Both the position numbers and the translations under genes were made by a program. The notes under the pieces were generated by a model. That model was not told the DNA's origin and made no database searches. It was given only the letters and a program-made list of their open reading frames with translations. A stretch of DNA of 64,000 bases, the filler included, from Stramenopiles sp. TOSAG23-6 (lineage: Eukaryota), in assembly GCA_900128565.1 (NCBI GenBank). It is 17 parts of 17 records of this genome, joined end to end, with 100 filler letters (N's around TTAATTAATTAA, not from the genome) between each part and the next. Parts side by side here need not be neighbours in the genome. Positions count along the whole stretch, not along the records: positions 49,111 to 52,771 come from LT637416.1; 16 more parts are not named here. One strand, written 5' to 3'. The first letter of the stretch is position 1, and each line of letters opens with the position of its first letter. Shown one piece after another: positions 51,481 to 52,709 of the stretch.

Positions 51481-52709
51481 TTATTTCGTCTGTTTCTTTT
51501 TTTTTCCCTTTTGTAAAGTTTTATTACTATTTCGTCTGTTTCTTTTTTTTTGTTTGCCATTTTTTAATTCGTTTTCTGTTACCATTTTATTTTTTTCCGA
51601 ATGTAAAAAAGATTTTGCTTTTTTTGTAACAATTTTGTTTTCGATTTTCTCTTTTTTTACATTTTTTACATGTTTTACATTTTTTACATTTTTTACATGT
51701 TTTACATTTTTTACATTTTTTATATTTTTTATATTTTTTACATTTTTGGTTTTCTGTTTTTTTCTCATTTGTTTTGCATCACGAAATTTTGCTTTTTTTA
51801 CCTTTTCTTCCATTGCAAATGACGTCATTTCATCTTGCATATATTTTGGAAGACGTTTTTTAAACAATGGTAATTCAGCAGCAAATAATATTTGATGCGC
51901 CCATCCAGAAAGTAGACCAAATCGATCACGAACAAATTCAAGTATTGTGAAAAAATATTTCAAAAAAAAAAAAAAAGTTTTTTGTTAGGTACAAAATTTC
52001 GTATGAAAACCAAAAAAAAAAAAAAATAAATTCGAAATTCGAAATGAAAACGTACACCAACCTTATCATATATTTTAGGTGTCACACTGTTCATTTCTCG
52101 CAATCCATGTTTATTGTCATTATCAAAATCTCGAATGGCAATATTCCATACATGTGTATCTACAGGTACAGCACATATATTGTAAAAAAAAATCGAAATT
52201 TGAAATTCAAAAAAAAAAAAAAACGTTAGGTACAAAATTTTGTATAAAAAAAACAAAAAAAAAAAATGGATAATGAAAAAAGTACCAAATGCATCTAAGG
52301 AAAAAAGAGCTACACATTCAGCCACTTTTGGACCAACACCAGGAAATTGCAACAATTCCTTTCTTTGATGTTTTCCAGTAATCCAATCATTATATTGATT
52401 GATTAGATTATCATTTTTTTGACCATCTAATTCAAAATGAACTGCTTGTATTTTGGAAAATATTTCAAAAAAAAGTTTTGAAAATTTGTTAGGTACAAAA
52501 TTTCGTACGAAAAAAAAATTCAAAAAAATTCAAAAAATTCAAAAAAATAAAACATACTTGTAAAAGAACATTTTTAGGAGGCCGAAGTGACTCTAAAAAA
52601 TCACTTGCAGTAGTATTTAGTGTTGAAATATTGTTTTCATTTTTTTCTTCATCTACATTTGTTTTTGTATTCATTTCAGCTAATAGGACAGCAGTACCAG
52701 CAATATACT
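51481..52709 (-). CDS. OGG1: 8-oxoguanine DNA glycosylase OGG1, 3' exons (introns 51940-52055, 52175-52285, 52446-52557)
   Basis: HhH motif LLQFPGVGPKVAECVALFSLD, then AVPVDTHVW and GWAHQILF. Confidence 0.9.
52446..52557 (-). mobile_element. GT-AA family intron in OGG1
   Basis: TTACAA|GTATGT...AATACAA|GCA; AA on both sides; nearby AGs would shift the frame. Confidence 0.75.

Follow-up and report, generated by a model that had tools for sequence, protein, structure and literature searches.

We describe a family of short repeated elements in a 64,000-nt stretch of DNA from Stramenopiles sp. TOSAG23-6 (assembly GCA_900128565.1; this whole stretch is referred to below as the window), where each complete copy forms one intron that begins with GT and, judging by the sequence, usually ends with AT. 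The best explanation for these introns, to which we assign a probability of approximately 0.55, is a transposon-like introner family inserting with a 2-bp duplication of the target. Such an origin had been proposed in the initial annotation of the window for the intron at 52446-52557 (the focal intron), situated in an OGG1-like gene together with two other copies. The features of this gene are listed below; here and further on, the exon-side dinucleotide (positions -2/-1) is given before the slash, and the last two bases of the intron, after it.

52446-52557, minus strand: focal intron, consisting of the element (GTATGTTTT...CCAAAATAC, 52448-52557) and the terminal AA (52446-52447); the exon ends with AA (52558-52559)
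52488-52509, minus strand: core of the focal intron, CGTACGAAATTTTGTACCTAAC, a near-palindrome followed by the branch-site-like CTAAC
51940-52055, minus strand: family intron of the same OGG1-like gene, GT/TT; removal of the element plus 2 nt fits the frame
52175-52285, minus strand: family intron of the same OGG1-like gene, TG/AT (both bases differ); removal of the element plus 2 nt fits the frame, giving ..SLDAFG|AVPVDTHVW..

On the minus strand, the focal site reads ...CTTTTAC-AA|GTATGTTTTATTTTTTTG...GAAATATTTTCCAAAATAC-AA|GCAGTTCAT or, with the core included, AA|GTATGTTTTATTTTTTTGAA...CGTACGAAATTTTGTACCTAAC...GAAATATTTTCCAAAATAC-AA|GCAGTTCAT, the downstream exon beginning with GCAG. The bases before the GT are AA, and so are the last two bases removed, exactly as the initial annotation had it. 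Taking out 112 nt (the element and two more nucleotides) joins the 50-codon and 161-codon frames of the gene (..PPKNVLLQ|AVHFELDG..).

Element family and the boundaries of its introns

The 15-nt core motif of the family has 61 matches in 64 kb, compared with 0.63 expected (at most two mismatches allowed). A profile built from 16 copies yielded approximately 50 significant copies, many of them cut by contig ends, with repeat units of about 90-135 nt. The curated set, to which the counts below refer, comprises 28 unique complete copies, with the duplicate at 60094-60183 and every copy truncated at a contig end excluded; both ends of each copy were set by the family alignment, not by the flanks. 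As an assembler is expected to break at a high-copy repeat, contig ends would tend to lie inside copies, and 13 of the 32 linker-adjacent contig ends do.

All 28 copies are in the sense orientation, between open frames of their own strand. The 5' end is the conventional GTAYGT (GTAYGTTTT in the alignment), with GT present in 27 copies. The best-conserved block of the alignment is the core, CGTACGAAATTTYGTACCTAAC, with a CTAAC that resembles a branch site and is located 32-51 nt from the end of the intron; the element also contains a T-rich tract, and its 3' end, ..TTTTYCAMAATAC, is conserved too. In the commoner subfamily (A), GTATGTTTT...AAAATAC, inverse complementarity of the ends comprises only GTAT/ATAC and a T-run opposite an A-run, and in the second subfamily (B), GTACGTTTTCA...TTCACAATAC, only GTA/TAC. 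The consensus fold of the 28 copies obtained with RNAalifold has a 5-pair central hairpin in the core (-1.8 kcal/mol). The core sequence CGTACGAAATTTYGTAC is a near-perfect palindrome in 52488-52509 and in all copies, its Y (C or T) pairing with the opposite G (G-U in 12 cases, G-C in 11, A-U in 4); there is a hint of an RNA hairpin immediately 5' of the branch-like CTAAC.

The splicing pattern was deduced from the reading frames and homology. In 23 of the 26 testable copies (the copy at 5321 is blocked by N, and the tandem pair 8042/8134 is counted as one), the frames are joined only by removal of the element together with 2 nt, the chance expectation being one third. The dinucleotide AT precedes the 5' GT in 17 of the 28 copies, as against 27 of 28 for the GT itself; because of this difference, and because of the frames, we place the 5' cut at the GT and the 3' cut two bases past the TAC. 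At 17002-17101, removal of GTATAT...ACAT results in ..GARAH|DFHH.., with an exact HDFHH match to the homologues P0002, P0006 and P0014, and the homologues of this junction read ..ARFHDFHHKNFTGNY.., ..VRHHDFHHRAFTANY.. and ..AYIHDFHHKNFLGNY... The Pfam matches to FA_hydroxylase and 4HBT_2 (thioesterase fold) end exactly at introns. At 51940-52055, the retained 5' GT gives ..KVGEFV.., and the retained 3' TT would give ..KVVEFV... The initial annotation had disfavoured a boundary shifted two nucleotides upstream; this boundary does create TGA at 23417-23506, whereas the second case it had cited, ASD GDQ, was not found among the 28 junction translations.

There is no AG after CTAAC in 19 of the 28 copies, and in seven of the other nine the AG is out of frame. 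On the evidence of sequence, the family members are GT...AT introns (rarely ending with TT, AA, GT or GC) that coexist with ordinary GT-AG introns of the same genome, one of which, CAG|GTATGT...ACAG|T, is found in a ubiquitin-conjugating enzyme gene.

Four known classes of introns were considered for the family and rejected. Introns of the U12 type are characterized by RTATCCTT at the 5' end and a branch site located 10-20 nt upstream of the 3' end; assignment to this type, or to the AT-AC class, is contradicted by the 5' end GTAYGTTTT, by the position of CTAAC 32-51 nt from the end, and by the stop that an AT-start boundary gives at 23417-23506. The hairpin-dependent nonconventional class (Euglena, diplonemids, Amoebophrya) was discarded, as the only predicted hairpin is the 5-pair central one and the ends do not pair. 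The Fritillaria type has AG at the 5' end, AC or AT at the 3' end and an exonic TAC, whereas 27 of the 28 copies here begin with GT and the exons end with AT. Finally, the conventional U2-type GT-AG class does not agree with the fact that no copy of the 28 ends with AG and 19 have no AG after the branch-like motif.

Some copies require separate comments. At 10904-11006, a coiled-coil open reading frame (ORF) is located upstream and the C-terminus of a NIF phosphatase (IIDNSPHAF..) downstream, and the N-terminal NIF domain is on another contig; from these flanks, the copy is probably an assembly chimera formed through the repeat. The two parts of the NIF phosphatase, 10904-11271 and 62061-62654, are separated by a probable mis-join in the repeated intron. 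The copy at 25412-25500 may be a chimera too. The intron at 40255-40377, considered as an exception to the removal of the element plus 2 nt, was rejected as such, being a GT-AG intron with the family core.

Paired dinucleotides and the origin of the family

If insertion duplicates two bases of the target, the exon positions -2/-1 should be repeated immediately after the TAC of the element. They are identical in 18 of the 28 copies (15 AT/AT, two TT/TT and one AA/AA), and in seven of the ten mismatched copies the final T is common to both sides. The initial annotation, which had reported about 19 matching introns out of 30, TT/TT at 4176-4285 and 14765-14869, and a final T shared by most mismatches, was right in substance, both TT/TT cases being seen in the curated copies. 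The association that it had suggested exceeds AT bias in the 28 copies of the window, because shuffled pairs give fewer matches both in total and outside AT. When the 3' dinucleotides were shuffled among the copies (200,000 shuffles), the mean number of exact matches was 13.4 (18 observed, p = 0.007), and 0.61 non-AT exact matches were expected (three observed, p = 0.014). Without the three copies that misfit the frames (n = 25), the respective values are p = 0.0017 for all matches and p = 0.007 for the non-AT ones.

The last two bases of the intron are AT in 21 copies, TT in three, GT in two, GC in one and AA in one (n = 28), with T as the last base in 26. In the target, position -3 is C in 13 of the 28 copies and position +1 is G in 17, the G+C content of the genome being 31%. 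This palindrome-like C-AT-G context counts in favour of duplication, as do the tandem arrangement AT-E-AT-E-AT at 8042-8232 (E, element) and a copy outside the window: a scan of metagenome contigs with the core motif gave four loci, of which one (L003) alone is a true copy, reading C-AT...AT-G. The same scan gave no matches in viral contigs and one match, by chance, in prokaryote genomes.

Seawater runs were compared with one window contig, 3795-7483, the parts of it without cover being uninformative. Run X3 contributes as many as 6,642 matching contigs there, almost all of them on intron parts, and this pile-up is not a copy number; the depth on unique exons is about 5. Joints between intron copies in the environmental contigs reflect cross-matching of the repeat and were disregarded. 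One X3 contig (record 5, 485 nt, no mismatch) covers 5409-5547 and 5653-5998 and skips 5548-5652, that is, 105 nt. As 29 nt from the 3' end of the adjacent intron 5321-5437 are retained in it, this contig is not a fully spliced message. Run X3 is labelled 'DNA?', so that DNA is only its guessed kind; DNA is consistent with exon coverage that is even, at a depth of about 5, and with the contigs running from exons into three other introns. The reference reads GAATT-GT-[103 nt]-AT-TTGG, and the X3 contig, GAATT-AT-TTGG: the element plus 2 nt are missing, and a single AT is left. Presence/absence polymorphism, which the initial annotation had listed as something to look for, is thus seen at one locus, the copy at 5550-5654, in a run guessed to be DNA.

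There are two possible readings of this site. AT could have been duplicated, with the exonic copy later changed from A to G (TTA to TTG, synonymous), which needs a substitution in an otherwise identical stretch; or else, the insertion could comprise 105 nt starting with GT, without duplication, which clashes with 23417-23506. At the latter site, AT would give TGA, and hence the 5' CT has to be the host sequence. As 23417-23506 requires the 5' flank to be the host one, and at 5550-5654 it is the 3' flank that agrees with the empty site, no single model other than duplication accounts for both.

At 6789-6920, an exon of exactly 44 codons, an X7 RNA contig and an X3 'DNA?' contig from different studies fit without mismatch, and at both ends they then become unlike the reference. 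The points of divergence (in the stretches 6616-6796 and 6789-6920) fall 8 nt within and 9 nt short of the boundaries predicted by the alignment (6797 and 6929). These ends could be other splice sites, or else belong to a strain with introns at shifted positions.

According to the preferred explanation, that is, insertion with target duplication, the element would be a short, non-autonomous, introner-like unit of about 90-135 bp in an AT-rich marine eukaryote. It would insert at AT, preferably within C-AT-G, duplicating these two bases. Splicing would begin at the GT of the element, as its conservation suggests, and end two bases past the TAC, as suggested by frames and homology, the 3' cut presumably being positioned by the terminal motif of the element plus two bases. 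Since the element is removed together with one duplicated dinucleotide, the coding sequence would be restored without a scar. Selection after insertion would favour A-T at the last two positions of the intron; the 3' dinucleotide would be derived from the host at birth and not be free afterwards. We put at somewhat under even odds the broader and still tentative claim that, in an uncultured and abundant lineage of marine stramenopiles, the ordinary spliceosome removes thousands of transposon-born introns with a non-AG 3' site set by ..CAMAATAC and a fixed two-base offset, the last two bases being copied from the host target, usually AT.

A number of observations weigh against insertion with duplication. 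The pairing statistics come from 28 copies and depend on three non-AT matches. Six copies with 3' AT have GT, CT, GC, CT, TT or TG on the exon side, and two copies show the reverse, whereas passive decay of a duplication would predict the opposite asymmetry. Were the exon to carry AT, the protein would be altered or truncated in four of these six (6930, P to H; 23506, C to stop; 29871, I to N; 52285, FG to LC) and remain the same in one (5550, synonymous). As the exons of the four copies could not have AT with the protein unchanged, the 3' AT should be constrained or element-borne, rather than a passive copy of the target. Hence, the suggestion of the initial annotation that the 3' dinucleotide is simply supplied by the host does not hold, AT being found in 21 of the 28 copies and persisting in the six with a non-AT exon side. 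The polymorphic copy has GT and not AT on the exon side, despite 485 identical flanking bases, and at face value it is a 105-nt insertion without duplication. The intron at 29629-29763 is a real exception: removal of the element alone or with 3 nt results in ..NPI(I)YKLQKVKKE.., and removal with 2 nt gives TAA. Some mismatched copies are possible assembly chimeras, one of them (10904-11006) being demonstrable from its flanks. Among the RNA contigs listed for contig 3795-7483, where two metatranscriptome runs cover exons, none spans a family junction. At 29629 and 29871, the best of five matches among transcript-derived proteins is 41% identical, and none spans the junctions.

The properties of the element itself also leave doubts. 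The terminal inverted repeat GTATGTTTT...AAAATAC that had been ascribed to it is correct as a sequence, for the commoner subfamily, but the complementarity of the inverted termini is only about 4 nt, and RNAalifold on 28 copies predicts no pairing between the intron ends. No transposase domain was found in the 30 scanned of the 63 window ORFs of at least 120 aa, and thus a transposase of the kind that the initial annotation had proposed to look for is not among these 30. The proposed insertion in the manner of a miniature inverted-repeat transposable element (MITE) with a 2-bp duplication is therefore backed in part, by the co-varying flanks, the removal of the element plus 2 nt and the empty site with a single AT, but not by the inverted ends or a transposase.

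In part, these observations would be accounted for if the mobile unit itself ended with AT (GTAYG...TACAT) and spread without target duplication, for instance through the reverse splicing and recombination suggested for introner-like elements of fungi. The AT of the exon would then reflect a preference of insertion or of splicing, and TT/TT and AA/AA would be a coincidence. An element-borne AT explains the asymmetry of mismatches better than duplication does, given 3' AT in 21 of the 28 copies, the six copies with a non-AT exon side, and the four never able to hold an exonic AT; the minimal inverted termini, the sense orientation of all copies, each with a 5' splice site and a branch-like motif of its own, and the lack of a transposase in the 30 window ORFs scanned agree with it as well. 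Still, we consider it rather unlikely, as it leaves unexplained the excess of non-AT matches (three against 0.6 expected, p = 0.014) and of all matches (p = 0.007), as well as the C-AT-G context, palindromic as for a DNA target. Besides, the empty site 5548-5652 is exact only if the missing unit starts with the 5' GT, and 23417-23506 demands the opposite. The other alternative concerning the ends is that the splice sites lie two bases upstream, yielding AT...AC introns (/ATGTATG...ATAC/) of the AT-AC kind, where an initial A is coupled with a final C, so that the repeat would be a splice signal and not a duplication. This would agree with AT before the GT in 17 of the 28 copies, AC at the element end in 22 of 28, the three copies that fit a 3' cut immediately past the TAC, and the X3 contig, which skips 5548-5652, a stretch that starts two bases ahead of the element and ends with its TAC. 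However, GT is kept in 27 of 28 copies as against 17 for the preceding AT, and the supposed first two bases of the intron include AA, TT, CT and GT. Moreover, such a boundary yields an in-frame TGA at 23417-23506 and changes ..VGEF.. to ..VVEF.. at 51940-52055, there is no U12-type 5' motif, and the branch-like motif is 32-51 nt from the end, making this variant improbable.

It is quite improbable that, the repeats being real, the pairing of flanks is a chance association distorted by mis-joined single-cell contigs and hand-chosen boundaries. Contigs of about 3.7 kb are indeed often broken inside the repeat, one chimera is demonstrable and another is possible, and the p-values are modest; but chimeras would remove matches rather than make them, the association becomes stronger without the three out-of-frame copies (p = 0.0017), and the boundaries, derived from the family alignment and not from the flanks, fit the frames in 23 of 26 cases. 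Lastly, the elements could be excised from DNA, similarly to internal eliminated sequences of ciliates with dinucleotide repeats, and not spliced from RNA. While the short direct repeat at both ends, one copy of which is left after removal, and the environmental contig without the element might be understood in this way, the strict sense orientation, GTAYGT, the branch-like motif and the T-rich tract are features against it, as are the AG end of the related copy (40255-40377), the neighbouring element retained in the contig that lacks one, and the long frames with the standard genetic code; we regard DNA excision as highly improbable.

Other copies, the host and the genes of the window

The remaining copies are listed below; where no other basis is named, the dinucleotides are those of the curated flanks.

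3500-3589, minus strand: family intron, AT/GT, repeated identically at 60094-60183 on the allelic contig
4176-4285, plus strand: family intron, TT/TT
5321-5437, plus strand: family intron, AT/AT; upstream frame untestable (N at 5311); its last 29 nt are in the X3 contig
5550-5654, plus strand: family intron, GT/AT, the element starting with GTAGG at 5550; absent from one environmental contig
6236-6342, plus strand: family intron, AT/AT
6930-7036, plus strand: family intron, CT/AT, from the curated flanks and the junction translation
7135-7236, plus strand: family intron, AT/AT
8042-8133 and 8134-8232, plus strand: tandem pair AT-E1-AT-E2-AT with the middle AT shared; joint removal of 191 nt fits the frames
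8334-8435, plus strand: family intron, AT/AT
10904-11006, plus strand: family copy, GC/AT, in the wrong frame, a probable assembly join of two introns, with unlike ORFs on either side
12822-12917, minus strand: family intron, AT/AT
13110-13205, minus strand: family intron, AT/AT
13332-13431, minus strand: family intron, GT/GC, the difference being synonymous (CGT or CGC) by the junction translation
14530-14621, minus strand: family intron, AT/AT
14765-14869, minus strand: family intron, TT/TT
17002-17101, minus strand: family intron, AT/AT, in the histidine box of a fatty-acid-hydroxylase/3-beta-HSD fusion gene, by HDFHH homology
21028-21131, plus strand: family intron, AT/AT
23417-23506, minus strand: family intron of a thioesterase-like gene, CT/AT; CT has to remain in the exon, as the 3' AT, if retained, gives TGA
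25412-25500, minus strand: family copy, AT/GT; the frames fit removal of the element alone or with 3 nt
29629-29763, plus strand: family intron, AT/AT, in a CCDC25-like gene; the frames fit removal of the element alone or with 3 nt, and removal with 2 nt gives TAA
29871-29980, plus strand: family intron, TT/AT, by the junction translation
37871-37991, minus strand: family intron, AT/AT
40255-40377, minus strand: intron with the family core and a conventional ..CCATAG end (GT-AG); the frame is open only without 123 nt (AG end) or 126 nt
45034-45131, minus strand: family intron, AT/AT, starting with ATATGT and not GTATGT, otherwise typical; the frames fit removal of the element plus 2 nt
48180-48283, plus strand: family intron, AT/AT

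A partial copy on the minus strand at 20560-20608 has the core motif, followed approximately 30 nt further by ..CACTTGCAG, which suggests another family-related intron ending with a conventional AG, like the one at 40255-40377. At 60740-60952, the centre of the element (CGTAGTAAATTTTGTACCTAACAATTC and the A-run) occurs four times head to tail, and then comes the normal 3' end, ..ACAATACAT. Short interstitial runs of telomere-like CCCTAA/TTAGGG at about 62810-62900 adjoin a copy of the core motif, and in the related metagenome contig L003 a run of CCCTAA/TTAGGG is found in an intergenic stretch at about 2250-2330.

The window consists of 17 contigs of about 3.67 kb, arranged in descending size and joined by N44-TTAATTAATTAA-N44 linkers (3695-3794, 7484-7583, etc.), with a G+C content of approximately 31%. 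The contig 30262-33935 is the same as 34036-37709, except for one N. The contig 1-3694 is an allelic form of 56631-60288, differing in a few substitutions and in an indel of a 36-nt repeat unit within a coding tandem repeat, the introns being identical. The frames are long under the standard genetic code, and the genes are ordinary eukaryotic ones: OGG1-like, fatty-acid hydroxylase/3-beta-HSD fusion, MgtC, MACPF-RCC1, ELMO, Sel1, thioredoxin, NIF phosphatase, WD40 and thioesterase. A tRNA gene at 22711-22783 (63 bits) is the sole Rfam match in the window, where no small nuclear RNA was matched by Rfam. Given these ordinary eukaryotic genes, a public protein that is 98% identical to the product of one window gene and has 'MAST3' in its label, and the presence of the window sequence in seawater metagenomes and metatranscriptomes, the host is probably an uncultured MAST-3 marine stramenopile.

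Related systems and implications

Fungal introner-like elements have canonical splice sites and are not known to have a duplication or inverted ends. The window family is similar to them in the length of about 100 nt, the presence of its own splice signals and multiplication within genes.

It is known that the introners of Micromonas pusilla and Aureococcus anophagefferens, as presented in excerpts of PMC11282704, are short, non-autonomous, near-identical introns with a short duplicated target on either side; the element supplies one splice site, and the second arises jointly with the duplicated target, so that insertion leaves no scar. The window family resembles them in being composed of high-copy short introns and, if the duplication is real, in a splice site made of the element and the duplicated target. 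By contrast, the same excerpts give GT/GC-AG ends, a 3-nt duplication (in Micromonas) and clear inverted termini, whereas the window family has a putative duplication of 2 nt, an AT end and termini of about 4 nt. In the tunicate Fritillaria borealis, MITE-derived introns (Henriet et al. 2019), according to the sections of PMC11282704 and PMC7789003 that deal with them, arise with a duplicated exonic TAC, resulting in an intron that ends with AC, and are mostly AG-AC or AG-AT. Here too a non-AG 3' end would be made from a duplicated exonic target; according to these sources, the Fritillaria introns are removed accurately and their positions are lineage-specific. Fritillaria, however, is an animal, and the 5' end of its introns is non-canonical as well, whereas the window family belongs to a protist, has GTAYGT and coexists with GT-AG introns.

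The introners of Amoebophrya, also a marine protist, are described in part of PMC7789003 as repeated non-canonical introns with direct repeats of 3-5 nt over the exon-intron boundaries. They have inverted repeats of 8-20 nt, a hairpin joining the ends and no consensus dinucleotides, whereas in the window family the ends do not pair, and GT and the final T are conserved. The nonconventional introns of euglenids and diplonemids, as outlined in excerpts of PMC11282704 and PMC12621601, have ends other than GT-AG and, frequently, short repeats at the junctions; they depend on pairing of the ends and are devoid of a pyrimidine tract, in contrast to the T-rich tract, GTAYGT and lack of a terminal helix in the window family. 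The combination of GTAYGT, a 2-nt repeat, a near-fixed final T, no terminal helix and coexistence with GT-AG introns sets the window family apart from the systems compared.

In the main texts surveyed, we found no paper linking introners or non-canonical introns with MAST lineages. The text of the MAST single-cell genome paper contains 'intron' twice, in the methods and in neither case in relation to splice sites, and introns are not mentioned in the Incisomonas paper.

Natural test cases are few for two open questions, the origin of new introns and the extent to which the spliceosome can depart from GT-AG. The family described here is a clean one: its 5' site is canonical, it has a branch motif, its 3' end is not AG, a 2-bp duplication is possible, and one insertion or more is still polymorphic in the sea; given such an insertion and these features, intron gain, the creation of splice sites and the choice of the 3' site could be read from metagenomes and metatranscriptomes. 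If the broader claim stated above is correct, the lineage would add to Fritillaria and Amoebophrya another independent case of a relaxed choice of the 3' splice site, though one with a strict yeast-like 5' site and branch motif. Public gene models of the lineage would then systematically read through such introns. P0001, a public model 98% identical to the gene at 15679-17250 (minus strand), starts in a wrong frame and is translated through the intron 17002-17101, thereby losing the upstream fatty-acid-hydroxylase domain. As this model reads through an unrecognised intron, gene catalogues, gene counts and claims of gene decay for the lineage may be distorted.

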